Assembly (NCBI GenBank): GCA_041662205.1
Contig: JBAZSZ010000001.1
Span: forward strand, 295,978 to 359,977
DNA from: Minisyncoccota bacterium
GTDB taxonomy: Bacteria > Patescibacteriota > Minisyncoccia > Phycocordibacterales > UBA9973
Direction: 5' to 3'
DNA: 64,000 nucleotides
Part shown: piece by piece, positions 5,028 through 50,870 of the stretch
Position numbering within the stretch: position 1 is the stretch's first letter
Layout of the letters: every line of letters starts with the position of its first letter
Made by a program: the position numbers and the translations under genes
Notes under the pieces: model-generated
Told to the model about the DNA's origin: nothing
Database searches by the model: none
The model's input: the letters and a program-made list of their open reading frames with translations, nothing else

Positions 5028-6545
5028 TTATATCATAGGTTCAGCCTCTTGTGAAGTCTTAGTTTTTGTTTTTAGATTTTCTTCTACTGCCTCGCCGGAA
5101 CCTTCTGTATCGACGGATTCTCCACTTACCTTTTTTCCTTTATTTTTTCCTTCAATAATCGCTTTTTCTTCTGCACTTCGAATAATGGTGGCTTCTTCTT
5201 CAGCAATAAGTTTCGCTGCATCACCTTTTGGTATTGAATATTTTCTGCGAGAAGCTGCTATGATCTCTTCTCTATAAGATGGATGAGTAGGTGGTAACAC
5301 CCGTAGAGTCTCCGCAGAAAAAGGATCATAAGATTCTCCATCAATGGTCATTTTGATATAAAATTCTGTAACTGCTAGATTGATCATATCTTTCACATCA
5401 AAGAGTGGAGCAAATTCCGGCTTCATTTTGACGGCATCCTCACCACCAATACGAAAAGTGATAACACTCCCGACATTACCCAGGACTGCTTGATGAACTT
5501 TTGGTAAAATCTGTCCGACATACTGATGCGCGATAGTTAAATTAAGCCCGTATTTACGAGCCTCAGATAAAATATTTTCAAAAGTTTGGGTAACGACGTT
5601 TTGAAACTCATCAACGTATAAATAAAAATCTTTACGTTCTCTTTCTGGTATAGCCGCACGTTCCATACCCGCTTGTTTTATTTTTGTTAAAAACATCGAA
5701 CCGAGAAAAGAAGAATTCTCCTCACCTAGTCGGCCTTTAGAAAGATTGATAAAGATTATTTTTTCTTGATTCATTAATTCACTAATATCAATTTTATTTT
5801 GTCTTTGGCCGAAAATATTTCGAAGCAATGGATCAGAAAGAAATTGTCCGAGTTTGTTTACAAGCGGGATAATGGCATCCGTATCAAATTTTTCAGACCA
5901 ATCAGCGAATTCAATAGCGAAGAATCTTTTGACCATGTCATCTGTAATATATTCCACCACTTTCTGTCTGTAATTTCTATCCGTCAACATTGAAATCATC
6001 CCACGCATGGTTGCATGAGGGTAATCCAAAAGTGCTAAACAAGTAAAACGAAAAACGTGTTCCAGACGAGGAGTCCAATTCGCTCCGAACTGTTTTTGAA
6101 AAACTTCAATCAACCCTTGAGTCAATTGAAATTTAAACATTGGATCGACATTTGCGAGCGGATTGAAAGATGCGGGAAATTCAGTATCTGGCGGATCTAT
6201 AATACAGACATCTTCAATACGTTCTTTTGGCACATAGTCTAACATTGCGTCTATTAATTCACCGTGTGGATCGATAATGCAAAGCCCATGTCCATACGAA
6301 ATGTCCTGCCGAAGCATTAGTTCCATAAGTTTTGATTTGCCAACTCCAGACTTTCCAACTATATAAAGATGCCTACGACGATCTACTCGTTTAATACCAA
6401 AAACGAATTTTTTCTCTTCTAATGAAGCGACGTAATTAGTTCGCCCGATAAAAGAAACATCATCAGGTTTTACTTTTCCAAAAACAGGTAGCTCTGGTGG
6501 TGGTGGTCCGTATTTTATTATTTGCACTCGATTCGGCTTGGACAT
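5028..6545 (-). CDS. TM-less TraD/VirD4/TrwB-family (type IV coupling protein-like) P-loop ATPase, paralog 1
   Basis: RRRHLYIVGKSGVGKS Walker A preceded by Arg cluster; IIDPHGEL; FNPL; Walker B DFYLYVDEFQN; TraG-D_C-like block LTIAHQYVGQI..GNVGSVITFRIGGEDA; no TM helices; start 15 nt downstream of stop... (stop 15 nt upstream of dnaJ start). Confidence 0.7.
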   Translation of the reverse strand: MSKPNRVQIIKYGPPPPELPVFGKVKPDDVSFIGRTNYVASLEEKKFVFGIKRVDRRRHLYIVGKSGVGKSKLMELMLRQDISYGHGLCIIDPHGELIDAMLDYVPKERIEDVCIIDPPDTEFPASFNPLANVDPMFKFQLTQGLIEVFQKQFGANWTPRLEHVFRFTCLALLDYPHATMRGMISMLTDRNYRQKVVEYITDDMVKRFFAIEFADWSEKFDTDAIIPLVNKLGQFLSDPLLRNIFGQRQNKIDISELMNQEKIIFINLSKGRLGEENSSFLGSMFLTKIKQAGMERAAIPERERKDFYLYVDEFQNVVTQTFENILSEARKYGLNLTIAHQYVGQILPKVHQAVLGNVGSVITFRIGGEDAVKMKPEFAPLFDVKDMINLAVTEFYIKMTIDGESYDPFSAETLRVLPPTHPSYREEIIAASRRKYSIPKGDAAKLIAEEEATIIRSAEEKAIIEGKNKGKKVSGESVDTEGSGEAVEENLKTKTKTSQEAEPMI

Positions 6546-6608: not shown

Positions 6609-8285
6609 TTAATATACCTCTTGCTGATAACACTTCTCGCAGTAGACAATCTCCGGCCTTTCTGGAGCAAAATTAGTGATAATTTTTTTCTGACATTTAG
6701 CACAATTACGATCCCAGAATTTATATGGACCTCGACGAATTACCCGATCTTGATGCCTGCAATAAAAACATTTTCTTGAAATTGGAATATTTATTTTTCG
6801 GTAAAATAAAAGTTCTTGATCTATAACCTTATAATTTCTTTTACAAGAAATACATTTTAAAATTTCACTCGTTATAGAATCCTCCACATCTTTTATGTGG
6901 TCAGGAATATCTTCTGTTTGTAATGTTTCTTTACCTTCTGTCTTTTGAATATCAACTTCCCATCTATAACCTTGCGCGAGAGCTTCTTCTTTTGAAAGGG
7001 GGAAATTTTCTTGAGCCATAGTTTCATTGTAGGCAAAAGGAGCAAGCTCATAGGATATCATTAATCCATATAAATCTAGATCAGTTAATTCTTTTATTAT
7101 TTTTTCCCTTAATCTTTCATACTCTTCTTTAGAATATTGCTTATTTAAAATAAAATATTGTCCATTTTTCAATCCATCACAACCAATACAGTTTTTGCAA
7201 TTCCTATTATAAAATCCATATAAAACATTACTGGAATTCTCTACTGCATAAGAACCAATAATATTATTCCCATACCCAGAAGCTACTACTTCGAGCAACT
7301 GTTCAGAGTTTATCCCATGACCAATTGTACCGATAGAATCTTTTATATGCTTTGACGAGTGAGTATGATGACAGTCTTCCCCATTGTTTATCTCAAAAGA
7401 TTTTTGAACATTTTTACACGAAAAAAGATAATCTCCCGTAGAATTTACAGTTTTTATATTATTATTTTCTCGCATTGGAAAATTTAAAATAAATTTCTCA
7501 AATTCTTTTTTAAATTCCTCTAATTTCTTATAAGATCCTAAAATATCACTCACTTTTTTAGTGTACTCATCTGCCCCCATCGGCTTATTTAAGAAATAGT
7601 GAGATTTATTATTCAAATTAACACAACCAAAACAATTTAAAACATTTCTACAATTAAAGACAAAACAAGAATCTACTGAACTGTTTATATTTTGACCATA
7701 AAGAATCCCAGAAGAATGTTGAATATTTATAGATTCGTAGCATCTTTCTACTTTTATTCCAAAATACAAATCACTAGAATCCTTGACATCTATTGCTCCT
7801 CTAGAATAAAGCACTTCCTCGGCTGGTCCAGTGTTGAAAACAAGATAACAATTCTTGCATCCACCAGCCATATTGATATACTCGCTATTTATGTTTGGAC
7901 CTGGACCAATAGAAATATAGGTAGTAATTTTAGGAACTTTTAATAAGAGCTCTTTATAGTGTTCTAAAAAAGATCGATTCTCATCAAAATCCATAGCATA
8001 ATCTCTCGCTTCCCATTTTTCAGAATAAAAACATTTTTCACAATAAATAACATAAGGGGATTTTGGATTATATATCGAAATAACATTTTTTTCACAGAGA
8101 GCGCATTTTCGTCCTGAATATAAACTCATCTCATTTCTAAATAAAGCGCGCATTATAAAACGACAATCTGGGCATATCTTTGGATTTGGTACCTTCATCT
8201 TTTCATAAAATCCAAGCTCGTCAGAGGAAAATGAAAAATCTTGTTTGCATTTTTTACAGTTTTTTATTTCTTTTATATTTTCCAT
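6609..8285 (-). CDS. Cys-rich multi-zinc-ribbon protein, paralog A (unknown function)
   Basis: 558 aa, about 40 Cys; N-terminal CxxC..FYxKxxVPxPxxCPxCR..RNExxLY..C module repeated near C-terminus; internal CxxCxxCxGC..NLxNK..NKQYSKEEY repeats; tail PERPEIVYCEKCYQQEVY; no signal peptide. Confidence 0.8.
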   Translation of the reverse strand: MENIKEIKNCKKCKQDFSFSSDELGFYEKMKVPNPKICPDCRFIMRALFRNEMSLYSGRKCALCEKNVISIYNPKSPYVIYCEKCFYSEKWEARDYAMDFDENRSFLEHYKELLLKVPKITTYISIGPGPNINSEYINMAGGCKNCYLVFNTGPAEEVLYSRGAIDVKDSSDLYFGIKVERCYESINIQHSSGILYGQNINSSVDSCFVFNCRNVLNCFGCVNLNNKSHYFLNKPMGADEYTKKVSDILGSYKKLEEFKKEFEKFILNFPMRENNNIKTVNSTGDYLFSCKNVQKSFEINNGEDCHHTHSSKHIKDSIGTIGHGINSEQLLEVVASGYGNNIIGSYAVENSSNVLYGFYNRNCKNCIGCDGLKNGQYFILNKQYSKEEYERLREKIIKELTDLDLYGLMISYELAPFAYNETMAQENFPLSKEEALAQGYRWEVDIQKTEGKETLQTEDIPDHIKDVEDSITSEILKCISCKRNYKVIDQELLFYRKINIPISRKCFYCRHQDRVIRRGPYKFWDRNCAKCQKKIITNFAPERPEIVYCEKCYQQEVY

Positions 8286-8313: not shown

Positions 8314-10065
8314 CTAGTATACTTCTTGCTGGTAACACTTCTCACAATACACTATCTCTGGTCGGTCAGGTGCATACGAAGTTTCAAATTCAACTTCACA
8401 TTTTTCATTGCCGTGAAAATGGTTCTCTTTGTCACACATGCAAGATCTATGCCAAATTTTCATAGGATTACGCATTTTTAGTCTATTTTCGTGACGACAC
8501 AAAAAACACAATCTGGGTAAAGGTACTCCGAGTTTTCGATATAAATTTAATTCATCTATAGTTATTTTATATGCTCCTCTGCAACAATTACTGGATTTTT
8601 CTTTATTATCACATCCAATAATTTCCTTCGTGATGGAATCTGTTACATCATCCAAACTAGACGGAAGGTCTTTAGCTTCTATTGTTGTTTGATACTCATT
8701 TACTTTTTTTTCACGCCATCGATAACCCATTTTGATTGCCTGCTCTTTGGAAAGAGGAAAATAATCTTGCGCCTGAGTTTCATTATAACAAAAAGTAGAA
8801 AGTTCACTAGGAAAAAATTCTCCATATTTATAGACAATTCCCCTCTTGTCCACATAAGGCACTTCATTCATCTGTTGTTCAATTTTTGGAATTAATTTTT
8901 CATATTCTTCTTTGGAATATTGTTTATTTAGAATACAATATTTCTTGTTTCGCACACCAATACAACCAAATAAATTTGAGCTTCCATGACAATTAAAAGA
9001 ATATTCAATATCATTTGAGCCATAAATCACACTACCAAAAAGATTACGAGAACCCCCTATTCCCGTATCAAAAACTTCATAAAGCATTTCGCCTTCCCCT
9101 ACTCCAGGACCAGAATCATAAGCATCTTTAAGACTTTTTACTGCCCAGTGTGAAAATTTTGCATCCTCTATGTCTCCAGTTGCGTCAAAACAAATTTTGC
9201 AATTTTTAGTACCTTCTAAATTATCGCCCGTTGAATCCACAGTCTTTATTTTAACAGCAAACCGATGAAGTGATTTTAGGCATATTTCTCTAAACTTATT
9301 TTTAAGTTCTTGGATAGTTCTATAATCCTTAAAACTATATTCTGCTATTTTTTTGTGATATTCTTCTCTAGAAAATTGCTCATTCCACATACAATATGAT
9401 TTATTGCGTAAATTAGTACAACCAAAACAATCTGTACATCCTACGCAATCATAAAGAAAATATGAATCTACACAACTTTTGCAATTTAGAGAATATAATA
9501 AATGATAGCTATCCGAGCAAAGCACGTCTTCATAACAAAGTTCAGAACGATTAACAACGTATAAATCTGCAGAATCTTTTGTTCCTGTAATTCTGTTTGC
9601 ATATAAAGTTCTTTCTATTCTCCAAGAACCGGAACACATATAGCTATCCTTACTAGCTTCCGCAACATTACAATAATCACTGTTTGTATCTTTTATATTT
9701 GAAAGAGATTGCAGAGGAATATTGTCTCTCAAATTTTTCCATTGTTCAAAAAAAGGATTTAAAAAATCATATTCTTTACCATACGAAAGTGGATCCCAGC
9801 CATCACCCCACCAAGCATCAGAACAATATACTGTAAGTTTTTCTTCTGGAGGTAAAAAAGAAATAAGCATTTCATTGTGTCCTGGCGCATCGCATTTTCT
9901 TTTAAATAAAGACATCTCATTTCGCCAAGTTAGACGCCGAATAGTTCTACACTCCGGACAAAAAGTCGGTGGAAGAACTTTTATCTTTTCATAAAAGTTA
10001 AAATCTTCCGGCTCTATAATAAAATCTTGTTTGCAGTTCTGACAGATCTTAGTTTCTGAATTCAT
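8314..10065 (-). CDS. Cys-rich multi-zinc-ribbon protein, paralog B
   Basis: 583 aa; same architecture as A; closest to paralog C; start 1 nt after ATPase-2 stop. Confidence 0.8.
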   Translation of the reverse strand: MNSETKICQNCKQDFIIEPEDFNFYEKIKVLPPTFCPECRTIRRLTWRNEMSLFKRKCDAPGHNEMLISFLPPEEKLTVYCSDAWWGDGWDPLSYGKEYDFLNPFFEQWKNLRDNIPLQSLSNIKDTNSDYCNVAEASKDSYMCSGSWRIERTLYANRITGTKDSADLYVVNRSELCYEDVLCSDSYHLLYSLNCKSCVDSYFLYDCVGCTDCFGCTNLRNKSYCMWNEQFSREEYHKKIAEYSFKDYRTIQELKNKFREICLKSLHRFAVKIKTVDSTGDNLEGTKNCKICFDATGDIEDAKFSHWAVKSLKDAYDSGPGVGEGEMLYEVFDTGIGGSRNLFGSVIYGSNDIEYSFNCHGSSNLFGCIGVRNKKYCILNKQYSKEEYEKLIPKIEQQMNEVPYVDKRGIVYKYGEFFPSELSTFCYNETQAQDYFPLSKEQAIKMGYRWREKKVNEYQTTIEAKDLPSSLDDVTDSITKEIIGCDNKEKSSNCCRGAYKITIDELNLYRKLGVPLPRLCFLCRHENRLKMRNPMKIWHRSCMCDKENHFHGNEKCEVEFETSYAPDRPEIVYCEKCYQQEVY

Positions 10066-10066
10066 A

Positions 10067-12028
10067 TTATTCTAAAATTTTTCTTAAAACATCTTCCGGC
10101 ACTTCTGGTGGATTAGATTTTTGAGACACAGGTGCAGGTGTGGGAGTAATATCCTTTTCTATTTTTCCCGATGTGGCAGTGGCAATCAAATCCTTTAATT
10201 TATTCATATCTTCTGCTGTAGCAGCACGATCATTTTTCATAGGAGGAATAAATTTTTTATTATCTTCATTTTTCTTTTTTAGGGAATCAAGAGAGATTGG
10301 TGCTGGCACAGTTTTATCTTCTACTACTATTTTATTTAAAACATTTTTCAATGACGAAGTATCTCTATTTATTGGATAAGTGGATTTAGGTCTGACAGGG
10401 GCTGGGACTTGTTTTGTGAAAACTTTCTTAAAGGTCTTTATTATTCCTGCAGGTTTTGTTGATACTGGAGCTTGTTGAAATTCGATACCCAAATCAGCTA
10501 ATGGTTTATAAAATTTAGATTCATCATATTTAATTTGATCTTGTCCTCTTTTTTCCACCTTAACTTCTCCAGATTTTATTTTTGCAATACATTCCTTACA
10601 ATAAGCAGCTCGGCCCGGCTCAGGCTTAAAAGGCACAGTTTTTTCTAATTTACAAAGTGAACAAATTACAGGGAATTTTTCTATATTTCCATTTGTAGTA
10701 AAAGTGTCATTACCTAATGACATTCCACTCCATTCATTGATTTCTCGCTCTACCGCCTCGCGGGACCTACAGTAAAGATCACGAGAAGATTTTATTACTT
10801 CTTCTTCCACTTTTTTATCACCGGACTTTACCATGGGCGGCAAGGTCTTAGCAGAAAATGGACGGGAGGTTACACCGTCAATCATTAATTTTAAATAAAT
10901 TTTATAGTTTGGTAAATTTACGATATCAGAAGGAGTAAATTCTGGATCAAATTCTTTTTCTAAAAAATCTGCGTCATCGGAACCAACACGAAAAACTATC
11001 ATTGTACCTACGTTACCAAAGACAGCATCACGCACTGCTGAGCTTTTATCCACCACTAGCTGCGCAGTGTATTGGTGGGCCACGGTTAGATTAAGCCTGT
11101 ACTTTCTAGCCTCAGATAAAATACCAGCAAAAGCATCTGTCACAAAGTTTTGAAATTCGTCCACATATAAATAAAAGTCTTTGCGATGTTCTTCGGGGAT
11201 ACGTACACGCTCCATGGCAGCCAGTTGAATCTTGGTAATGATCATTCCTCCCAAAAGACCAGAGTTGTCTTCACCGATACGCCCCTTAGAAACATTCACG
11301 AGAAAAATCTTCCCGTCATTCATAATATCAAAAATATTAATCGTGCTTTTAGATTGACCCACAACATTACGAATAATAGAGGTAGAAAGAAATTGTCCAA
11401 CCTTATTTTGAATCGGTGCGATAGCTTCATTACGAAATTTATCCTGCCAGGCTTCATACTCATGGACCCAAAAAGCCTTAATCACTGGGTCTTTCAAATT
11501 GGCAATTATTTTCTGACGATAATCTTTGTCCACCAGCATACGAGGAATTCCTAAAAGTGTCGTCCCTGGAGTATCGAGTAATGCTAAAATACAATTATTT
11601 AAAATATATTCCATTCGCGCACTCCAAGCATTCGCCCAGATTTTAGTAAAAATACCCATCAGTCCAGAAGCTACTAGATGTTTATATTGTGGATCAATTA
11701 ATTCTAAAACATTAAAACCGATATGGTAGTCTACATCTGCTGGATTAAAATAAACTACATCCTTCATTCGCTCTGGTGGAATAGCGGAAAGAACTCCTTC
11801 GACGAGTTCTCCATGCGGATCAACCACACAAACTCCCTCACCATTTTTAATGTTCTGAATAATCATATTGAACATCAGGACAGATTTACCTGAACCAGAT
11901 TTCCCTAGAATATAAACATGCTGACGTCTGTCTTTGCGCTTGATACCAAAAAGTTGATTTTTATCACGAAAAGTTGTTAGCCCAAGATAAGTAATGTCTT
12001 TTTTTATAGGCAATTCTGGAAGTTCCAT
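10067..12028 (-). CDS. TM-less TraD/VirD4-family P-loop ATPase, paralog 2, with C-terminal CxxC-x17-CxxC zinc ribbon and K/P-rich tail
   Basis: RRQHVYILGKSGSGKS, VVDPHGEL, FNVL, DFYLYVDEFQN, LTVAHQYTAQL; C-terminal ICSLCK..PFKPEPGRAAYCKEC resembles the PxRPxxxYCxKC tail of the Cys-rich paralogs. Confidence 0.7.
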   Translation of the reverse strand: MELPELPIKKDITYLGLTTFRDKNQLFGIKRKDRRQHVYILGKSGSGKSVLMFNMIIQNIKNGEGVCVVDPHGELVEGVLSAIPPERMKDVVYFNPADVDYHIGFNVLELIDPQYKHLVASGLMGIFTKIWANAWSARMEYILNNCILALLDTPGTTLLGIPRMLVDKDYRQKIIANLKDPVIKAFWVHEYEAWQDKFRNEAIAPIQNKVGQFLSTSIIRNVVGQSKSTINIFDIMNDGKIFLVNVSKGRIGEDNSGLLGGMIITKIQLAAMERVRIPEEHRKDFYLYVDEFQNFVTDAFAGILSEARKYRLNLTVAHQYTAQLVVDKSSAVRDAVFGNVGTMIVFRVGSDDADFLEKEFDPEFTPSDIVNLPNYKIYLKLMIDGVTSRPFSAKTLPPMVKSGDKKVEEEVIKSSRDLYCRSREAVEREINEWSGMSLGNDTFTTNGNIEKFPVICSLCKLEKTVPFKPEPGRAAYCKECIAKIKSGEVKVEKRGQDQIKYDESKFYKPLADLGIEFQQAPVSTKPAGIIKTFKKVFTKQVPAPVRPKSTYPINRDTSSLKNVLNKIVVEDKTVPAPISLDSLKKKNEDNKKFIPPMKNDRAATAEDMNKLKDLIATATSGKIEKDITPTPAPVSQKSNPPEVPEDVLRKILE

Positions 12029-16013: not shown

Positions 16014-17756
16014 CTAGTAAATCTCCTGTTGATAGCATTTTTCACAATAAACTATCTCTGGCCTCTCAGGCGCATAACTCGTTTCAAATTCTATTTCACA
16101 TTTACTTTCGTGAGTATGATTTTCTTTTTCACACATACAAGTTCTTTTCCATAATTTCCATGCTGGTAATTGATAAAACCTTTCATAATATCTACAATTG
16201 GGACACAAAATCGGGAGCGGTATTTTATTTTTCTTATAAAAATCAAGTTCAAAATTTGCTAAACGAAAAGCGATATTGCATTGATGAATACAACTTCCCT
16301 TGTGTGCACATTCTAATACTTCTCCTAAAATTTTATCATCTACTTCATCTATTGTATCGGGAATATTTTCTACAGGTATGGTAATCTGGAAATTCTTTAC
16401 ATCTTGCTCTAACCATCGATAACCGTTTTTTTCTACTTCTGTTTTAGTCATTGGATTAATTTCTTGGGCAAAAGTTTCGTTGTAAGCAAAAGGACAGACT
16501 TCTATAGGAAAAAATTCTCCATATTTATAAACTCTACCCGCCTTGTCCACAAAAGGTATATTTTCCATTTGTTTTATAATTTCTAAGCGAAGTTTATCAA
16601 ATTCATCTTTTGAACAAATTTTATTGAAAATTACATTTTCTTTATTTCTTATTCCAATACAACCAAATAAATTTGAGCTATTAATACAAGAATCAGTATA
16701 CTCCACATTGCTGACAGAACTAAAAGCGGAATGAGAAAATTTCACATTATAATCATTTAGAGATCCAGTAACATATTCATACATCAATTCTGACTTCATT
16801 GCCTGAGAAGAATCCATGGAATCCTTAAAAGACTCCAATACTCTATAACAGTATTTCAAATTTTCCGCATTGTAAACATCAAAACAATTTTGACAATTTT
16901 TTACATTTGAAAGATTATTTCCAGTAGCGTTTACTGAACGTACAATGTTAGTAAAACGATAAATAGATTTTTCTTTTATTTCTTTAAATTCCTTAAGAAA
17001 AACTTCCAGAGAATCCCTGCTTGATAAATTTAATCTTTCTTTTTCTTTTAAATATTCTTCTTTTGAATACTGCTTATTGCGAATATAAAATTCTTTATTA
17101 CGTAAATTGTAAGAAAGTAAGCAATTGCTACAGTTTACACAATCAACTAAAAAATAAGAATCTAAACAATTTTTTGAAAGTAATAAATACTGACAATTGT
17201 AATTTTTCTCACTTTGAATATTCTCATATAAATTTTGCCCTTCGTTAATATTTAAGCAATCAATAATGTCCGTAGACTTATCTACATTCTTTGAATAAAA
17301 AACATTTTCTGAACCCTTAACGACCGAAAATGATAAATAAACATTCTTAGACTCACCCGCATAATTTGTATAATCAGAGTTAATTACATTTCTATGCCAC
17401 AAAGCTAATCGAGGCACGACATTCATTAATTTATTAAATTGCTCAAAAAATGGTCTAGAAAAATCATAATCTCTACTAAAAGAAGTGGCTTCCCAACCAT
17501 CTCCAAACCAACATTCTCGACAATATACAGGGAAAGGCACGGATTCATGGTACATTGAAATAATGTTTTTCTTACACAAATCACATTTACGTTTATATAA
17601 AGTTCTTTCATTACGCCAAGCCATTCTCCTTTGCAACCTACACCAAGGACAAAAAGTAGGTGCGGGAACTTGTATCTTTTTGTAATAATTAAAATCTTCT
17701 GGCTCTATTTTAAAGTCTTTTTTGCAATTCTGGCAATTTTTAGTTTCACTTTTCAT
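16014..17756 (-). CDS. Cys-rich multi-zinc-ribbon protein, paralog C
   Basis: 580 aa; N-terminus CQNCKKDFKIEPEDFNYYKKIQVPAPTFCPWCR..WRNERTLYKRKC; tail FETSYAPERPEIVYCEKCYQQEIY; start 1 nt after paralog D stop. Confidence 0.8.
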   Translation of the reverse strand: MKSETKNCQNCKKDFKIEPEDFNYYKKIQVPAPTFCPWCRLQRRMAWRNERTLYKRKCDLCKKNIISMYHESVPFPVYCRECWFGDGWEATSFSRDYDFSRPFFEQFNKLMNVVPRLALWHRNVINSDYTNYAGESKNVYLSFSVVKGSENVFYSKNVDKSTDIIDCLNINEGQNLYENIQSEKNYNCQYLLLSKNCLDSYFLVDCVNCSNCLLSYNLRNKEFYIRNKQYSKEEYLKEKERLNLSSRDSLEVFLKEFKEIKEKSIYRFTNIVRSVNATGNNLSNVKNCQNCFDVYNAENLKYCYRVLESFKDSMDSSQAMKSELMYEYVTGSLNDYNVKFSHSAFSSVSNVEYTDSCINSSNLFGCIGIRNKENVIFNKICSKDEFDKLRLEIIKQMENIPFVDKAGRVYKYGEFFPIEVCPFAYNETFAQEINPMTKTEVEKNGYRWLEQDVKNFQITIPVENIPDTIDEVDDKILGEVLECAHKGSCIHQCNIAFRLANFELDFYKKNKIPLPILCPNCRYYERFYQLPAWKLWKRTCMCEKENHTHESKCEIEFETSYAPERPEIVYCEKCYQQEIY

Positions 17757-17757
17757 A

Positions 17758-19434
17758 TCAAGCTATATTTTGTTTATAACATTCTTCGCAAGCAATTTTC
17801 TGGTATCCCCATTCCGGCAAATAATATGCATCGACATCCTTTTTACAATAAAAACATTTATATTGATGTGCTTGCAAGATAGTCAAATATTTCAAACTAT
17901 TTTTTATTCGCACATCAAAATGATAACGTGGAAGTGGGATATTATTTTCTTTGTAAAAAGAAAGTTCATTTTGGGCAATATTGAAACGCCAGCCCGTTTC
18001 AGGGCAAATCAGTGCCTGAGTGATGATAGTATTCGGAACGTCTTTGATATCGTCAGGCAACTCCGCTGTAGGCATGCCGTCTACATGACTCTCTGTGACA
18101 TCCTCCCAATAACCGCCAAATTTTAAAATATCTTCTTTTTTAGTTTCTGGAAAATACAGAAAAGCAGTAGAAAAATTAAAAGGTCCCAAGCTCATGGAAT
18201 AAGGTAAAAATTTCCCATATTCTCCACTCTTTTTCATATCAGAAATTATCTTATTTTTTAAAGTTTCATATTCTTCTTTACTATACTGTTTGTTTAAAAT
18301 ACAATATTTCTTTTTCCCCAAACCCACACAACCAAAACAATATTCACATTCAAGACATAGATCTAAATATTCAGAATATCTTGAGGACGACCAACTGGAA
18401 TATTTGAGAGCATAACCACTTGGTTGGCAGGAACTACAATTGCCTGATACTTCTAAATACTGACAACCATTTATGTCGACGCAAGACTCTAATCCTGTGC
18501 CTCTGATACAGTTAGAGCAATCCTTAGAATCAGAGATTGTGAAACAATTTTGGCAATTTTTACAATCAATTAAGTAATCGCCAATGGAATTGAAAACTTT
18601 TAAATTGAAGTTCGGTCTATGCGCCACCTCATTTTTAATTATTTCTTTAAAATGTTTTTTAAGTTTTTGAATAGAATCATAAGAACCAAGATTAAATAAT
18701 TGGATTTTTTTATCATATTCCTCCTTAGAATACTGCACATTTTCTATACAATAGGATTTATTGCGAAGATTCCAACACATAAAACAATTTTGACAGTTTC
18801 GGCAATCATATAAAAAACTTGATTGTATGCAATCGCGGGAATGTTTCGAATAAAAAAGTTTGTAGGAATGATGACATTCAGAAGAATCAAAACATTTTTC
18901 ACTATTATAACAAACAACCACATCAATAGAATTTTTTACCCCTATATTCCTATATGAATAAAATAAATTTTCGCAATCTACCATTGAACGAGAAAGATAA
19001 CTATCCTTACAATTCCAAACATCATCACACCAATCACAACCTGTACTTTTAATACCATCTTGATGCGGACGAGGAACTTTCTCTTGAAGATTTTGTAATT
19101 GCTCAAAAAATAATTTTTTTTCGTCATAGTCTGCCCCATAATCCATCGCGTCCCACTTGTCGCTATACCACTCATTTAAAGTGTAAATCGGATATCTAGT
19201 CTTCTCTGGTAAAACGGTAATTAAACTTTCTCCAGAGAGATCTGATTTACCCCTGCGAAATTTTCCAAACATCCAAAAAGATAAATGTAATTTTACTCGA
19301 CAAAAAAAACAAAGTGTCGGTAATTCAATATCAACTTTTTTATATAAAGATAATTCTTCTTCTGTAATTAAGAAGTCTCGTTTGCAGTGTTCACAAACTC
19401 TAGTTTGCAGGTCCTTTGTATTCATATACATCAA
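17758..19434 (-). CDS. Cys-rich multi-zinc-ribbon protein, paralog D (most divergent)
   Basis: 558 aa; CEHCKRDF..LSLYKKVDIELPTLCFFCR; CRNCQNCFMCWNLRNKSYC..YSKEEY repeats; start overlaps grpE 3' end by about 25-35 nt. Confidence 0.75.
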   Translation of the reverse strand: MMYMNTKDLQTRVCEHCKRDFLITEEELSLYKKVDIELPTLCFFCRVKLHLSFWMFGKFRRGKSDLSGESLITVLPEKTRYPIYTLNEWYSDKWDAMDYGADYDEKKLFFEQLQNLQEKVPRPHQDGIKSTGCDWCDDVWNCKDSYLSRSMVDCENLFYSYRNIGVKNSIDVVVCYNSEKCFDSSECHHSYKLFYSKHSRDCIQSSFLYDCRNCQNCFMCWNLRNKSYCIENVQYSKEEYDKKIQLFNLGSYDSIQKLKKHFKEIIKNEVAHRPNFNLKVFNSIGDYLIDCKNCQNCFTISDSKDCSNCIRGTGLESCVDINGCQYLEVSGNCSSCQPSGYALKYSSWSSSRYSEYLDLCLECEYCFGCVGLGKKKYCILNKQYSKEEYETLKNKIISDMKKSGEYGKFLPYSMSLGPFNFSTAFLYFPETKKEDILKFGGYWEDVTESHVDGMPTAELPDDIKDVPNTIITQALICPETGWRFNIAQNELSFYKENNIPLPRYHFDVRIKNSLKYLTILQAHQYKCFYCKKDVDAYYLPEWGYQKIACEECYKQNIA

Positions 19435-45172: not shown

Positions 45173-45296
45173 ACATGGATAGTCTGTCCCTTGAAAACAA
45201 AAAAATACGGAGGAATTCTCTCCGCTAGAATATAAAATAGAAGGGCTTCCCTTTTATAAAAAATTGTGGGTTAAAAAAAAGAAAAAGGAGAAAGTC

Positions 45297-46238
45297 ATGG
45301 AAAACGAAGAAAGAGAAATAGAAAAAAACGAAAACAGAGAAGAGGGAAAAGGAAACAAGAGAGAACAAAAAAATTCTACTCTCGATGTTGTACTAGCGGT
45401 CTCGTTCGTCGGATTCACAATCGCTGGCGGAATTTTTGGAATCAGAATTGGTTTTGCTGGATCTTGGCTCGCTATGTTTATCCTCCTGCTTCTGGGGGGG
45501 ATTATTCTGGCTTTAAGTCTTAAAAAAATTAAAGTCGGGCATCGCGCCCAATATTTATTTTTAGGACGAAGAATACAATACTTCGTGAAAGAGGGCTTAC
45601 ATGTAGTTTTGTGGCCTTTTTTCACAATCAAGGAGATAGATTGTCGTGCAAAGACAACTACCTTGAATGAGGAGAACATATTCACCTCTGATAACGTGGA
45701 GGTGAAATTAGAAAAGCCTTCTATCGTGTCAAAAATTGTGGATTTAAATAAGTATCAAGATCTGGATCCCGAAAACCTACCGGGGCTTCTTGATGATGTA
45801 GTGGATGAAAATGTCCGCTATAAAATAAGAAACGCCCCTTTGGAAAAAGTCCTCGGAATGAGATTTAGTATCGACGAAGAAGACATTAAACACGGTCTCG
45901 GTAACTGGGGCATAAGCATTGTAAGAATTATTGTGCCGGATGTTGTGCCGGTCAATAAGGATTTCATTGAAGCCCAAGAATTGAAAACGAAAGAAAGTCT
46001 TCAGCGTGAAGGACAAAGAGTTCAGGCTAGACATCATGCTGACCTGATCAAGTTCTTCTCTGGAAGTGAACAACTCGGAGAAGAAGGTCCTTCAGGACCT
46101 GAGTTAAGCCCAGAGCTAGCGTATGAAGCTGCTTTAATCCATATGGATAAAGCAGAAAAGAAAAAACTAGCGTCAAATAATTTTGGCCTTGACGCCACCA
46201 CAGTAGATGCCATCGCAAAAGCGGTAATAAGGAGGTAG
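45297..46238 (+). CDS. SPFH/Band-7 (stomatin/prohibitin-like) membrane protein; start set at ATG preceded by AAGGAG
   Basis: N-terminal TM followed by SPFH-domain-like HVVLWPFFTIKEIDCRAKTTTL..VEVKLE.. Confidence 0.6.
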   Translation: MENEEREIEKNENREEGKGNKREQKNSTLDVVLAVSFVGFTIAGGIFGIRIGFAGSWLAMFILLLLGGIILALSLKKIKVGHRAQYLFLGRRIQYFVKEGLHVVLWPFFTIKEIDCRAKTTTLNEENIFTSDNVEVKLEKPSIVSKIVDLNKYQDLDPENLPGLLDDVVDENVRYKIRNAPLEKVLGMRFSIDEEDIKHGLGNWGISIVRIIVPDVVPVNKDFIEAQELKTKESLQREGQRVQARHHADLIKFFSGSEQLGEEGPSGPELSPELAYEAALIHMDKAEKKKLASNNFGLDATTVDAIAKAVIRR

Positions 46239-46240
46239 TA

Positions 46241-46648
46241 ATGATAAAAAGAACTGTGTTTTTAATATCTCTAGCCCTTATCTTAATATTTGGGGTGGTC
46301 TGGGGTTCACATTGGGCAACAAAATGGTACGAAAAAAAAGAAACAAAAAAGGTAGAAGGGTTAAAAGCGAAGGAACTCACTAAAACTCAGCCACCGGCAA
46401 CAATCAACAGCAAAGGAGGAAAACACAAAACACTGCTTGTCTTCCTACCTAATGGGTGTATTGCAAAACACCTTCAGGGAAGGTGGGAAAGATATCCCAA
46501 AGGAGGAAAGATAAAATTCCTTGACTCTAATGGGAAAGTGGTTTTGATTGATGAGCCAGGTACTTATGTACCCTCATCATTGCCTGCAGGAGAATACAAA
46601 ATCTGCAAAGCAAGTCCCGAAGCATGGGGCGTTGAGATCTGGGAGTAA
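46241..46648 (+). CDS. Membrane-anchored small protein co-transcribed with SPFH gene (possible NfeD-like partner)
   Basis: N-terminal TM, 135 aa, start 3 nt after SPFH stop. Confidence 0.4.
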   Translation: MIKRTVFLISLALILIFGVVWGSHWATKWYEKKETKKVEGLKAKELTKTQPPATINSKGGKHKTLLVFLPNGCIAKHLQGRWERYPKGGKIKFLDSNGKVVLIDEPGTYVPSSLPAGEYKICKASPEAWGVEIWE

Positions 46649-46737: not shown

Positions 46738-47067
46738 TTATTGACTCAAATTCACTGTTCCATTTTCTGGATCTATTTGACTTTCATTTATTCCCAAAGT
46801 ATTTAATACAATACTGAGAATAGTCCAAACTCCCATCATGATAGTGATACCAATAATTCCCCAAATCATATGATTTCTGCCAGCTGTCTTTTTATCTGCT
46901 TCTTCTTGATTGGAAAGAAATTGAAATACACCATAAAGAAAATACACAATAGCTAAAGCAAAGAGGAGCTCAATAAGTGGATTGATAATCATATTATCAA
47001 TCTTGCCGATAAAATCATTCAAGCCAGAACTAGCTCCATAAGCTATCTTTGTAGAAAAAAAATCCAT
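46738..47067 (-). CDS. VirB2/TrbC-like two-TM pilin-like protein, paralog 5
   Basis: two hydrophobic helices separated by charged loop NQEEADKKTAGRNHMIWGIIG. Confidence 0.55.
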   Translation of the reverse strand: MDFFSTKIAYGASSGLNDFIGKIDNMIINPLIELLFALAIVYFLYGVFQFLSNQEEADKKTAGRNHMIWGIIGITIMMGVWTILSIVLNTLGINESQIDPENGTVNLSQ

Positions 47068-47075
47068 ATTTCAAT

Positions 47076-47459
47076 TTATTGTATTGTAGGTAAAACAATA
47101 CTATCAGCATTAGTACCAGTAAGCCCAAAAGTATTAGTCAATATTCTTACGAGTCCCCATAAAGCTACGATAACTGCAAAACCAATAATACCATAAATAA
47201 TTCTGTCTCTACCTTTTGATTTTGCTTCTTCATCATCATTGATAACATAGCTGACGACTCCCCAGACAAAAAATACAACTGCCAAGGCAATCAAAACTGG
47301 AACGACAGCATTAAGGAGCTGACTAATTTTACACATTATTCCTCCTATGTCACTAATCTGTCCTGCATTACAAGGACCAGTACCCACAGTCGCTGCTAAC
47401 GCAGCCACTGGAGCTAAACCCAAAACAAAACCTGACAATGCAATTAATTTCTTTTTCAT
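47076..47459 (-). CDS. VirB2/TrbC-like pilin-like protein, paralog 4 (with signal peptide)
   Basis: signal peptide ..PVAALAA; VVFFVWGVVSYVINDDEEAKSKGRDRIIYGIIGFAVIVALWGLV. Confidence 0.6.
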   Translation of the reverse strand: MKKKLIALSGFVLGLAPVAALAATVGTGPCNAGQISDIGGIMCKISQLLNAVVPVLIALAVVFFVWGVVSYVINDDEEAKSKGRDRIIYGIIGFAVIVALWGLVRILTNTFGLTGTNADSIVLPTIQ

Positions 47460-47572
47460 AATTTTTCTAAAAACACTTTTTAATAATTTTATCCGCCTTT
47501 GGCGGAAAAGCGACCTAATAATAAACTAATAATATCTTTTAATTATAACCTCTCATAAAAATCAAAGCAAAT

Positions 47573-48160
47573 TTATTGAGGGGGGACGACCCTTGGGAGA
47601 ATTGACGTATTTAGATCAAAAGTACTGCCAAGAATTCCGACCAATCCCCAAACAGATAACATCACCGCTAAAGCAACAATCCCCCAGATCATAAATTCCT
47701 TGCCTTGTTCCCTCTTTGCTTCTTCATCAGCATTAATAATAAAAAATTGCACTACACCCCAAATAAACATAATGGTAGCTAATGCAAAAATCAAAGGAAT
47801 AATTGAGTCACTAATAATTTTAGTGATATAACACAAAACGTCTTGAAATTTAGGATTACCAGCTAGACTACAAGAAGTAGAATTTACGGTACTAACTAAA
47901 GGTTCAAGTGTGGGAGCAGTAGTATCAAGATCAAAAGTGTTAACCACAATATTTACCAACCCCCATAAAGCAGTGATAACAGCAAAACCAATAATACCAT
48001 AAATAATTCTGTCTTTACCTTTGGCCTTAGCCTCCTCCTCATCTGCGATGACGTATTGCACCACTCCCCAGACAAAATAAACCACCCCGAGAGCAACTAA
48101 AACCGGTAGGATGGAATCAAGAATATCTTTAAACTGTACTATTAAATCTTGTATGTCCAT
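47573..48160 (-). CDS. Tandem-duplicated (fused double) pilin-like protein, paralog 3
   Basis: two consecutive copies of ..VYFVWGVVQYVIADEEEAKAKGKDRIIYGIIGFAVITALWGLV.. / ..IMFIWGVVQFFIINADEEAKREQGKEFMIWGIVALAVMLSVWGLV.. Confidence 0.6.
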   Translation of the reverse strand: MDIQDLIVQFKDILDSILPVLVALGVVYFVWGVVQYVIADEEEAKAKGKDRIIYGIIGFAVITALWGLVNIVVNTFDLDTTAPTLEPLVSTVNSTSCSLAGNPKFQDVLCYITKIISDSIIPLIFALATIMFIWGVVQFFIINADEEAKREQGKEFMIWGIVALAVMLSVWGLVGILGSTFDLNTSILPRVVPPQ

Positions 48161-48180
48161 AATTTATAATTCGTAATTAA

Positions 48181-48558
48181 TTATAATAATCCTTTCACTG
48201 TCGCTTCTATCATCTTGGCTATAGCAAATGATCCTAATAATATTCCAGCGCCGATCAATGTCCAGACAAGCGCGTCTTTAGCTTTAGTTAATTCTTCTGA
48301 ATTACCTTGAGCTTTTACAAAAAGAAAACCACAGTAAATGATAGCAAGGGCTATGATCGGAATACCGATCATCAGTACACCTTCTAAGATTTTTTGAACA
48401 AGTCCTGAGATTGAAGTTATGCTAGGAATTGGGTTTATAATTTTGCCCTGAGTAGGATCAGTATTGGGACCATCGGCTAAAGAAATAACTGGAACAATAA
48501 ACACATAAACTAGAAAAATAATCTTCTGCCAACTTTTATTAATAAATTTCATCTTCAT
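48181..48558 (-). CDS. Pilin-like protein, paralog 2 (with signal peptide)
   Basis: signal peptide, ...IYCGFLFVKAQGNSEELTKAKDALVWTLIGAGILLG. Confidence 0.5.
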   Translation of the reverse strand: MKMKFINKSWQKIIFLVYVFIVPVISLADGPNTDPTQGKIINPIPSITSISGLVQKILEGVLMIGIPIIALAIIYCGFLFVKAQGNSEELTKAKDALVWTLIGAGILLGSFAIAKMIEATVKGLL

Positions 48559-48564
48559 ATTATA

Positions 48565-48972
48565 CTATGGAAAAGGATTGAAACCAATCCAATCACCCTC
48601 GTAACCCAAGATTGATAAAATCGTTCTAATAATTATAAAAGCAGCCAATGCAATTATCAACCCAAGGACTGTATTAGTAAAAACGGATTTCATCCTATTC
48701 TTTGCTTCCGTTGATCCTCCTGATGTAACCATCAGAAAGCCAGCATAAGCGAACATAATAGCTGAAATAGGAATAACTAAATCAAAAAGAATAAATTTAA
48801 TTACTTTATTTATTAATGCCATAAATGCATTGAAGTCACAAAGGTTCTCAGCTGAATTATCACAAGGAACTAAGCCCAAACCATCTGCACTCGCTAAAGA
48901 AATGACAGGAATAATAAGAATTAAAAATATTAAGAATGAAATTATATTTTTTTTTGTTTTTTGCATAATCAT
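48565..48972 (-). CDS. Pilin-like protein, paralog 1 (with signal peptide)
   Basis: signal peptide ..PVISLASA; ..IMFAYAGFLMVTSGGSTEAKNRMKSVFTNTVLGLIIALAAF. Confidence 0.5.
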   Translation of the reverse strand: MIMQKTKKNIISFLIFLILIIPVISLASADGLGLVPCDNSAENLCDFNAFMALINKVIKFILFDLVIPISAIMFAYAGFLMVTSGGSTEAKNRMKSVFTNTVLGLIIALAAFIIIRTILSILGYEGDWIGFNPFP

Positions 48973-48976
48973 TTGT

Positions 48977-49022
48977 TCCCTAAACCTTGCTTAGGGGAAT
49001 TCCCCTAAGCAAGGTTTAGGGA
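48977..49022. repeat. 46-bp perfect palindrome TCCCTAAACCTTGCTTAGGGGA-AT-TCCCCTAAGCAAGGTTTAGGGA centred on GAATTC, 4 nt upstream of the first pilin-like gene's ATG
   Basis: seen directly; overlaps the AGGGAA SD-like element. Confidence 0.85.
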
Positions 49023-49029
49023 CCTGTAT

Positions 49030-50319
49030 TCATTTAAATAATAAAAGACTCAACTTAGTATTGGCATCTTTGACCGCATCAGCTACTGACATATTATTAG
49101 AAATTACCGCATTTGTCATCTCACTAAAAATAACATCAGTATCTTTTGATGATGGGTCGAGCCAGCTCTTGCCATATAAAGCTGAACTATAAAAAATAGG
49201 AGAATAAGCATCTTGTAATTTGATAGCGAGCAAGTCTCGGCGTGCCGGAGGCACACCTGTAACCGTAGTGAACTTTGAAGCAAAATCCCCTGTCGTCATC
49301 AAGCTCGCCGCGAGAAAAGCGGTGCTGATATTTTTAGAAAAGGAAGAAATAGCAATTCCAGTCACTCGAGCCATCGTCACTTTTGAATTAGCATTTTTAA
49401 TTTGAGGAATAGGAGCGACAAAGAAATTTTGATTGGGATTTCTTTTTACCATAGATTGGAGCTCAGAAGCATATCCGAAATAAAAAGCTAAATCCTCTTT
49501 AGAAAAAGCATCGTTCGAATTTGGAAATGACCTATTCCAAGAATATAAAGGATTATTGGGATTCGCAAAATCTGTGTAGAATTTTAACATTGAAGGAAGG
49601 TTGAAATTTCCAATGGATGAGTCTAAAGTCGAAATCAAAGATCCATCTTTTTCTTTTACGATCGGATTGCCTGCCTGCATGAAAAGAGTGGCTAGAATAT
49701 CTTTAAAATGAACTATATTTGAAGAATATCCAAACGCAATGGCGCTTTTAGTTATTTTATTTGAATCATCTTTTTTAGTAAGAGTAGATGTTATGTTTGT
49801 CATCTCATCCCAATAAGCTGGAGGAAAGACAACGCCATTTGCATCAAGCATACTCCTATTGTAATACATCATAAGTGGATCAATAGAGATCGGAAAAGCT
49901 AAAATGCCACCAGAAGTAAGAAACACCTCCCCTGCGCCGGCGAAATTATTCTTGAAAGAAGTGAGGGAATAATTCTCATATGGAATAGCAAAAATTTTAT
50001 TGGCGTAATGAAAAACTAAATCGTCAGACAAGAAGAACATATCCGGTCCTGTGCCCGAAGCAGCCGCTTCGAGTAAATCTTGATCAAAAGTATCAATAGA
50101 TTTTTGGACATAAGAGACGGTAAAAGTAGGATTAGCATTGTTAAAATCCATCATAATATTAGACATCGTGGTATTTGGTACTGTTCCCCATAGAACTACT
50201 TTACCCAAACTCCCTGTGCCAGTCTTCCCGACTGGAATCGCTCCAGAAAAAACCAAAACACCTAAAATAGCCGCAGCAATAAATATAACTAAAATGATTA
50301 CTTGAAAATTTCCTTTCAT
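49030..50319 (-). CDS. Membrane-anchored extracellular solute-binding-protein-like (SBP family 1-like) protein, orphan
   Basis: N-terminal TM, 429 aa, overall SBP_bac_1-like composition and C-terminal pattern; no ABC permease adjacent. Confidence 0.45.
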   Translation of the reverse strand: MKGNFQVIILVIFIAAAILGVLVFSGAIPVGKTGTGSLGKVVLWGTVPNTTMSNIMMDFNNANPTFTVSYVQKSIDTFDQDLLEAAASGTGPDMFFLSDDLVFHYANKIFAIPYENYSLTSFKNNFAGAGEVFLTSGGILAFPISIDPLMMYYNRSMLDANGVVFPPAYWDEMTNITSTLTKKDDSNKITKSAIAFGYSSNIVHFKDILATLFMQAGNPIVKEKDGSLISTLDSSIGNFNLPSMLKFYTDFANPNNPLYSWNRSFPNSNDAFSKEDLAFYFGYASELQSMVKRNPNQNFFVAPIPQIKNANSKVTMARVTGIAISSFSKNISTAFLAASLMTTGDFASKFTTVTGVPPARRDLLAIKLQDAYSPIFYSSALYGKSWLDPSSKDTDVIFSEMTNAVISNNMSVADAVKDANTKLSLLLFK

Positions 50320-50354: not shown

Positions 50355-50870
50355 TTATGACTTAGTTAATATCATACCATAATGATGATCTCCTACATCA
50401 ATTTCTCTTTCCTCAATAAAACCTTTTTTCTTAAACATTTCTAAAGCTTTATCTTTAGGGACTATAATATTTTCACTCATGACTGATGATAGAGACCAAT
50501 CAATCAACAAAACCCTCCCTTTTATTTTCAATATTCTTTTTATCTCTTCAATAAAATTTTCTTTATTTTCTACTTGAAAAAGTATATTTGAAACAATAAC
50601 TGCATCTGCTATACCATCTCCCATCTTCGTTCCCTTGAGTTTCTCTACATCCCCTAAAATAACTTCAACATTGTTTAAATGAGCTTCGAGTATTTTTCTT
50701 TTAATAGTATCTAAAAAATCTTTTTGTAATTCAATTGCATAAACTTTTCCTTTTGGCACAAGTGATCCCAAGGCGACAGAGTAATAACCAGTCCCCGCTC
50801 CTAAATCCGCTACAATATTATCTTCTCTTAATCCAAAGGCTTTTAAATTTTTTACTGGATCAGTGAACAT
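50355..50870 (-). CDS. Class I SAM-dependent methyltransferase
   Basis: motif I VADLGAGTGYYSVAL; 171 aa. Confidence 0.75.
   Translation of the reverse strand: MFTDPVKNLKAFGLREDNIVADLGAGTGYYSVALGSLVPKGKVYAIELQKDFLDTIKRKILEAHLNNVEVILGDVEKLKGTKMGDGIADAVIVSNILFQVENKENFIEEIKRILKIKGRVLLIDWSLSSVMSENIIVPKDKALEMFKKKGFIEEREIDVGDHHYGMILTKS

Follow-up and report, generated by a model that had tools for sequence, protein, structure and literature searches.

Tandem arrays of VirB2-like pilin genes have been described in Patescibacteria. A screen of 3,035 Patescibacterial genomes with the PF18895 and PF04956 profiles found VirB2-like pilins in 1,948 assemblies containing VirB4, in 1,135 of these near virB4, and catalogued 441 arrays in 383 assemblies; these comprise 2-11 VirB2-like genes each and have a mean within-array identity of 25% and a maximum of 54% (Quinonero-Coronel 2025, PMC12102498). 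The arrays are most abundant in Microgenomatia and Saccharimonadia, and the idea that they serve antigenic variation has been raised (PMC12102498). In Ca. Southlakia epibionticum ML1, six pilin genes (PMC12857230) are located in its type IV secretion system (T4SS) cluster SEML1_0006-0019, which is essential, as is the pilin series inside it (Wang 2023, PMC10633639). A review from 2025 treats a pilus-forming T4SS in a monoderm as a possibility only (PMC12857230). Here, we describe such an array in a Minisyncoccota bacterium, found in a stretch of 64,000 nucleotides (contig JBAZSZ010000001.1, positions 295,978 to 359,977), hereafter called the window. According to the list of open reading frames (ORFs), the minus-strand run from 48972 to 46738 consists of five consecutive genes with six VirB2-like pilin modules. 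These genes probably form a cassette of VirB2-type pilins that are worked by a T4SS encoded elsewhere, build a mixed filament or conduit and are expressed as two units.

The locus is of the published kind, a VirB2-like pilin array of Patescibacteria, with genes in tandem and low identity between them. As in ML1 and in the 441 catalogued arrays, several divergent PF18895/PF04956 genes follow one another on the chromosome of a member of the candidate phyla radiation that is monoderm and host-dependent, and, as in other Patescibacterial arrays, the identity within the array is low and no relaxase was recognised among the window ORFs scanned. In contrast to ML1, the array is located outside a T4SS cluster, behind genes for a methyltransferase and a solute-binding protein (SBP) next to gyrA; there is no VirB4 within 15-46 kb in the window, nor within 10 kb in the relatives, one gene encodes a covalent two-module pilin, and the organism belongs to the class Paceibacteria. 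The features shared with VirB2, TrbC and TraA (Agrobacterium T-pilus, RP4 and F) are the predicted signal peptide, the two helices, the charged loop and the small mature protein. Differences from those systems are the monoderm host and the gene number, five genes and six modules where those have a single pilin gene; moreover, a signal peptide is missing in two members, neither a cyclase nor an acetylase was identified as a partner, and the system is known here from its genes alone. The Mbov_0395/MMCAP2_0565 protein of Mycoplasma integrative and conjugative elements (NF045849) is likewise a VirB2-like two-helix protein from a wall-less or monoderm lineage; however, it is encoded by a single gene in a mobile conjugative element, whereas the array here has several genes and no genes of such an element nearby. 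In Bartonella and Anaplasma phagocytophilum, VirB2 genes have also been amplified in tandem and have diverged, but a role in antigenic or host-range variation has been proposed for those arrays, whereas here old orthologue groups in a fixed order are found. What this locus adds to the published arrays are fused multi-module pilins, a fixed orthologous cassette, the coupling to an SBP gene and a conserved promoter-like site.

In the direction of transcription, the first pilin gene, P5 (48565-48972, minus strand as all five), encodes 135 amino acids with a signal peptide (SLA/S), a Cys pair and two hydrophobic helices; its true start is likely the second ATG at 48966 (MQKTKK...), which matches the orthologues. 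It is followed by P4 (48181-48558, 125 amino acids, signal peptide SLA/D, two hydrophobic helices), by the fused double pilin P3 (47573-48160, 195 amino acids, without signal peptide), by P2 (47076-47459, 127 amino acids, signal peptide ALA/A, a Cys pair and two helices) and by P1 (46738-47067, 109 amino acids, two helices and no signal peptide). A hydropathy scan revealed two strong hydrophobic helices in each module, and thus four in P3, which are arranged as two modules. The layout of two helices with a short charged loop is backed by the alignment of the six modules and by an AlphaFold2 model of P3. An additional N-terminal signal-like helix with a signal peptidase I-type (AXA-type) site is present in P2, P4 and P5 and missing in P1 and P3; only 20 nucleotides separate P4 and P3, leaving no room for a signal peptide upstream of P3. 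According to hydropathy and the module alignment, the Cys pair lies just ahead of the first helix in P2 and P5 and is also found in the linker of P3.

An earlier sequence-only reading of this DNA had described five minus-strand genes for small two-helix proteins with an optional signal peptide; the ORFs and the hydropathy agree with this, with two helices per module and a signal-like helix in P2, P4 and P5 only. The two loops quoted there, DDEEAKSKGRDR and ADEEEAKAKGKDR, were both found. The WGLV-like ending attributed to the second helix has to be restricted: it applies to P2 and to each of the two modules of P3, P1 has a weaker form (VWTIL), and P4 and P5 lack it.

The assignment to the T4SS pilins rests on curated profiles. 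With gathering scores of 26.6 bits for PF18895 (T4SS_pilin) and 27.9 bits for PF04956 (TrbC/VirB2), four of the five genes pass: against PF18895, P1 scored 30.2, P2 45.9, P3 80.5 (in two stretches) and P4 29.3 bits. P4 also reached 31.3 bits against PF04956 and is the most TrbC/VirB2-like of the five. P5 itself stays below both thresholds (TrbC 22.4, T4SS_pilin 19.8 bits). Yet 16 of 16 orthologues from the P5 position match PF18895 (best E 4.4e-11), and a profile of the P5 family aligns with that of the P2 family with a probability of 96.1% (hhalign, E 2.9e-9) over the signal peptide and both helices; P5 can therefore be placed in the T4SS pilin family as well. The NCBIfam model NF045849 (Mbov_0395 pilin-like conjugal transfer protein, cutoff 40 bits) is passed by P3 with 47.6 bits, while P1, P2 and P4 score 28-32 bits. 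The family is large, with 1067 homologues of P3 and 7052 clusters (at 50% identity) related to P2. P3 is 100% identical to WC694_01825 at NCBI, a hypothetical protein of a Candidatus Paceibacterota metagenome-assembled genome, and its orthologues carry the names 'pilin' (NCBI) and 'Type IV secretion system pilin' (JGI). Sequence and profile searches of the PDB, for which P4 and the families of P3 and P5 served as queries, found nothing relevant, and helical hairpins match hundreds of unrelated chains in solved structures, so that this comparison is uninformative about a VirB2/TraA fold. Taken together, the proposal of VirB2/TrbC-like T4SS pilins holds at the level of curated Pfam thresholds for P1-P4 and at family level for P5, and we consider it highly probable that all five genes belong to the VirB2/TrbC pilin superfamily.

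A scan of species-representative genomes yielded 80 loci, all from Paceibacterota/Nomurabacteria and nearly all with an array, and a second scan in metagenomes, seeded with distant pilins, yielded 80 more. When the genes are named by their best match to the window paralogs, the order P5-P4-(P2-like N module)-P3C-P2-P1 is the same in nearly all of the 80 loci. The best match in another genome was of the same positional type for 60 of 62 N modules, 62 of 62 C modules, 61 of 62 P2 and 61 of 62 P1. Orthologues are 52-67% identical (medians) across 60-80 species; the paralogs in the window share 16-46% identity, with the exception of P2 and the P3 N module (64% over 80 amino acids). The presence or absence of a signal peptide and the extra domains are likewise specific to the array position. 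Since each position has its own orthologues and the order is fixed, the paralogs are older than the whole clade and not interchangeable. These comparisons show an old chromosomal cassette that has been passed on vertically and whose position-specific orthologues are found in more than 110 related loci.

Some relatives show an N-terminal extracellular extension of 250-300 amino acids before the module of the P5-position pilin, resembling an adhesin-pilin fusion; examples are L055:1857-3098, with a thrombospondin type 1 (TSP_1) domain, and L080:8763-9833. Further first-position pilins of this kind are 300-410 amino acids long.

The third gene was said to contain two complete copies in one ORF (47573-48160), and this is borne out by two PF18895 stretches, four helices and two hairpins in the model. 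The N module (about 47915-48160) is P2-like and the C module covers about 47576-47878. In the AlphaFold model, built with 30 homologues, the hairpins H3-38/H42-75 and H105-142/H147-180 are connected by a disordered linker (pLDDT 69). Such fusions are not restricted to this genome. Among the best 120 homologues of P3, 110 have two modules and ten have three, and of the top 150 representatives at 50% identity, many matched in two or three stretches. Two- and three-module fused pilins are, as far as domain matches tell, common in the family; in a limited check, the literature on Patescibacterial pilin arrays made no mention of them. In 15 related arrays, all five genes are single-module genes and a stand-alone P3C-type gene occupies the third position. 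Five of these stand-alone genes were read: three have a signal-peptide-like N-terminus, and all five contain an NPK(L/F)QD segment, which in the fused genes is the linker between the modules. Since this segment is the linker in the fused genes, the P2-like hairpin has taken the place of the signal peptide. P3 is an in-frame fusion of a P2-like module ahead of a P3C-type mature pilin. Most P3 orthologues retain an N-terminal signal peptide, but P3 of the window belongs to a subgroup of 191-199 amino acids that has lost it as well. Triple-module pilins of 331 and 336 amino acids are found at the double-pilin position in L059:9869-10864 and L066:9575-10585.

With 113 nucleotides, the spacer between P3 and P2 is the largest gap inside the array, as it is in nearly all loci. 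It contains a promoter-like site on the minus strand (47542-47570), consisting of TTGCTT (47565-47570), 17 nucleotides and TATAAT (47542-47547). Within the first 60 nucleotides of the spacer, 62 of 79 loci have an exact TATAAT, compared to a mean of 3.2 of 78 in random 60-nucleotide windows, and an anchored alignment of 73 spacers showed that it is often preceded by TG. The P2 leader downstream of it (47510-47540, minus strand) carries ATTATTAG repeats around a nearly invariant AGGTCGC; the motif TTATTAGGTCGC flanked by these repeats (47510-47521, minus strand) is unique in the window, and GGTCG is found at the same place in 65 of 79 loci. The whole leader folds no better than shuffled sequences (z -1.4), and a search of the array region against Rfam gave no family at gathering score, the best being Srn266 with 37.8 bits against 63, which overlaps a palindrome described below. 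The AGGTCGC leader may act as an operator or as an RNA element. In more distant relatives, a ATCCACAG motif upstream of the -35 is often seen instead.

Directly after the AGGTCGC motif and 33 nucleotides upstream of the P2 ATG, the leader contains a GC hairpin, TCCGCC-AAA-GGCGGA (47492-47506, minus strand), which is unique in the window with zero expected by chance. A CCGCC hairpin between paralogs had been noticed before, and it does exist; the suggestion that it attenuates read-through is not convincing. It has no U-tract, is located downstream of the conserved -10, and hairpins with varied stems are found at the same position in only about 20 of 79 relatives and are absent from the rest. 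For the first two reasons, and because the terminator scan missed it, an intrinsic terminator was rejected as well. We read the hairpin as a probable optional insertion in the P2 leader. Two kinds of GC-rich structured inserts recur in P3-P2 spacers across species and resemble miniature mobile or repetitive extragenic palindromic elements: GAATCCCGTTAGAAGCCGCGGTCACGG... and AACCTGCCCGCAATGC...GGCGGGGGTCG, seen in the spacers of L001, L046 and L049 and of L022, L027, L062, L078 and L081.

These data suggest the following way of working for the cassette. P5, P4 and P2 would be exported by Sec and cleaved by signal peptidase I, and in P1 and P3 the first helix would stay as an uncleaved membrane anchor. 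Both ends of every module would face outward and the charged loop would be cytoplasmic; with such an N-out/C-out topology, a head-to-tail fusion like P3 is topologically possible. A T4SS of the monoderm type (MPF-FATA-like), driven by VirB4 and encoded at another place in the genome, would then pull the modules out of the membrane, and they would polymerise into a mixed surface filament or a conduit for contact with the host cell. Expression would occur as two units, SBP-P5-P4-P3 by read-through from upstream and P2-P1 from a strong promoter of its own. Because of this strong predicted promoter of P2-P1, P2 is the likeliest candidate for the major subunit; P5 is likely a minor or tip subunit, since relatives fuse it to TSP_1-type extracellular domains. 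For the actual formation of a filament by these pilins, we see the chances as even.

Several points weigh against this proposal. In agreement with what the sequence-only reading had stated for VirB4 and VirB6, the window ORFs scanned contain no VirB4, VirB6, VirB3 or TrsD in the 64 kb, and about 110 related loci likewise show no gene of VirB4 size within 10 kb of the array. Since there is no VirB4 near the array, the link to a T4SS comes only from homology and literature. A VirB2-type filament has not yet been demonstrated in any Patescibacterium, the 2025 review naming it as a possibility only (PMC12857230). The topology is inferred, with P1 and P3 lacking a signal peptide and the charge of the loops being mixed, the confidence of the P3 model is moderate, and the major and minor roles are deduced solely from promoter position and domain fusions. 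Concerning VirB4, a published table records it for six of seven Nomurabacteria assemblies with the same array (Table S1, PMC12102498), and the lineage is among those in which pilin genes are unlinked from virB4.

The most serious alternative draws on the genes upstream. The SBP gene (49030-50319, minus strand) encodes an SBP_bac_1 protein of 429 amino acids (PF01547, E 1.4e-15) with a single N-terminal transmembrane helix, and directly upstream of it lies the gene for a class I S-adenosylmethionine-dependent methyltransferase of 171 amino acids (50355-50870, minus strand; Methyltransf_31/11/25). In a search for SBP homologues, the 120 proteins listed all came from close relatives. The pilins might be VirB2-like in sequence and yet independent of a T4SS: partners of the anchored SBP, maybe substrates of the methyltransferase, which form a pore or scaffold for the uptake of host solutes without VirB4. 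Several observations fit this. Of the 78 loci that reach far enough upstream, 77 have a co-oriented SBP gene that ends a few bases before the first pilin ATG; in most of ten relatives inspected, stop and ATG lie 3-6 nucleotides apart or overlap. In the metagenome loci, the same SBP gene abuts the array in 34 of 34 cases with room upstream, at SBP identities of 34-59%. The methyltransferase gene always directly precedes the SBP-pilin block, even at a GyrA identity of about 60%. Furthermore, no ABC permease or ATPase gene was found among the window ORFs scanned, so the SBP looks orphan, and VirB4 was found within 10 kb in no locus. However, the whole order S1 - lactamase-fold - gyrA - methyltransferase - SBP - pilins ... 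infB is kept at GyrA identities of 59-74%. The adjacency of SBP and pilins is thus no proof of a joint function, since housekeeping genes nearby are equally syntenic; it may reflect general synteny. In Saccharibacteria, homologous arrays form part of the T4SS cluster and share its essentiality, a pilin gene lies near virB4 in the 1,135 of 1,948 assemblies mentioned above, and VirB4 is reported from six of the seven relatives with the same array. Altogether, pilins that work without a T4SS seem unlikely to us.

The same neighbourhood allows a more far-reaching proposal, to which we give a slightly smaller, rather low probability. The methyltransferase, the SBP and the six pilin modules may be one functional unit that builds a heteropolymeric VirB2-type filament or conduit on a monoderm cell and works with the SBP, serving as an organelle for the uptake of host nutrients and not as a secretion or conjugation pilus. 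If this were true, the stoichiometry of the subunits would be partly hard-wired by the di- and tri-pilin fusions. The block has been handed down vertically beside gyrA throughout a broad clade of Paceibacteria, with GyrA identities to the window down to about 60%.

Far less probable, in our view, is that the array is a set for antigenic or host-range variation, in which interchangeable pilin versions arise by duplication and recombination and are expressed alternatively, as proposed for Bartonella and Anaplasma. The sequence-only reading had thought of antigenic variation or alternative subunits, and the former has been put forward in the literature for Patescibacterial arrays. The copies in the array are divergent apart from the one closer pair, and in this pair a direct repeat of 204 nucleotides (73% identical) connects P2 with the P3 N module. 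The median identity of the P3 N module to P2 is 61% within a genome and 57% between genomes; this excess is only slight, and concerted evolution of the two was therefore rejected. The orthology already refutes the idea of variation to a large extent: for each paralog, more than 60 species have a stable orthologue at its own position, with best matches of the same type in at least 97% of cases, the genes keep their order and are not flanked by long repeats or invertible elements, and signal peptides and extra domains go with the position. This pattern points to distinct structural roles of the putative subunits and speaks against antigenic variation. That the five proteins are prepilin-peptidase-dependent (type IV) pilins, or pseudopilins, from a type IV pilus or a competence system can practically be dismissed: the array of small secreted hydrophobic proteins recalls such systems, as does a very weak ComGF match of P1 (E 0.019; 15 bits, where the cutoff is 80), but none of the five N-termini has the class III leader (G/FTLIE), as noted from the start, the modules have two helices instead of one plus a globular domain, and the Pfam families matched are those of T4SS pilins.

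The VirB2-type cassette is embedded in an ordinary piece of chromosome, the window containing gyrA, dnaK/dnaJ, clpB, secA, genes for ribosomal proteins, tRNA synthetases and mur ligases, and five tRNAs. The spacer between the SBP stop and P5 is filled by a perfect palindrome of 46 nucleotides (48977-49022) with two 23-nucleotide arms that are 100% complementary and have no loop. As RNA it would form a 21-bp hairpin (-40.7 kcal/mol, z -8.4), and each arm contains CCCTAA...TTAGGG. The palindrome is unique in the window and absent from 83 related loci, and is thus specific to the source genome; a few relatives have other small GC-rich inserts at the SBP-P5 junction. On the other side, a gene for a Band_7/SPFH membrane protein (45264-46238) and one for a small anchored protein (46241-46648), both on the plus strand, are convergent with the array. 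This pair recurs downstream of the array in some relatives, that side being variable (Fic and integrase genes in L001).

Two type IV coupling protein (T4CP)-like ATPases in the window (5028-6545 and 10067-12028) had been taken as a hint of a T4SS-related apparatus, to which they add little. They are 35-42 kb away from the array and have no predicted transmembrane helix, and a Patescibacterial genome has about two VirD4-like genes, which seldom lie close to virB4 (Quinonero-Coronel et al., PMC12102498); a role of these ATPases in the pilin apparatus is therefore not supported. According to the literature, the single T4CP-like ATPase homologue of S. epibionticum is not essential. Close to these ATPases, the minus strand encodes four Cys-rich, paralogous-looking proteins of about 560-580 amino acids, two of them (6609-8285 and 8314-10065) between the two T4CP/HerA-like ATPases and two further along (16014-17756 and 17758-19434). 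All four share an N-terminal zinc-finger-like motif, CxxC...FY.K...P..CP.CR; the treble-clef domain of Pfam, zf_Tbcl, scored only in 6609-8285, and one of the ATPases carries a zf_Tbcl_2 domain. The ATPases and the zinc-finger proteins may be a separate, uncharacterised system.

Whether a Patescibacterial T4SS makes a pilus in a cell with a single membrane, and which cargo it carries, is an open question in the field, and the experiments come from one Saccharibacterium only. For a second, very large class, the Paceibacteria, the pilin set is an ancient core cassette with fixed, non-interchangeable members, genetically uncoupled from virB4 and tightly packed behind an SBP gene. The di-pilin, P2 and the SBP offer targets for structure prediction, metatranscriptomics and cryo-electron tomography. 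The fixed cassette and the common fusions favour models in which the Patescibacterial pilins build a heteromeric structure over models of antigenic variation.

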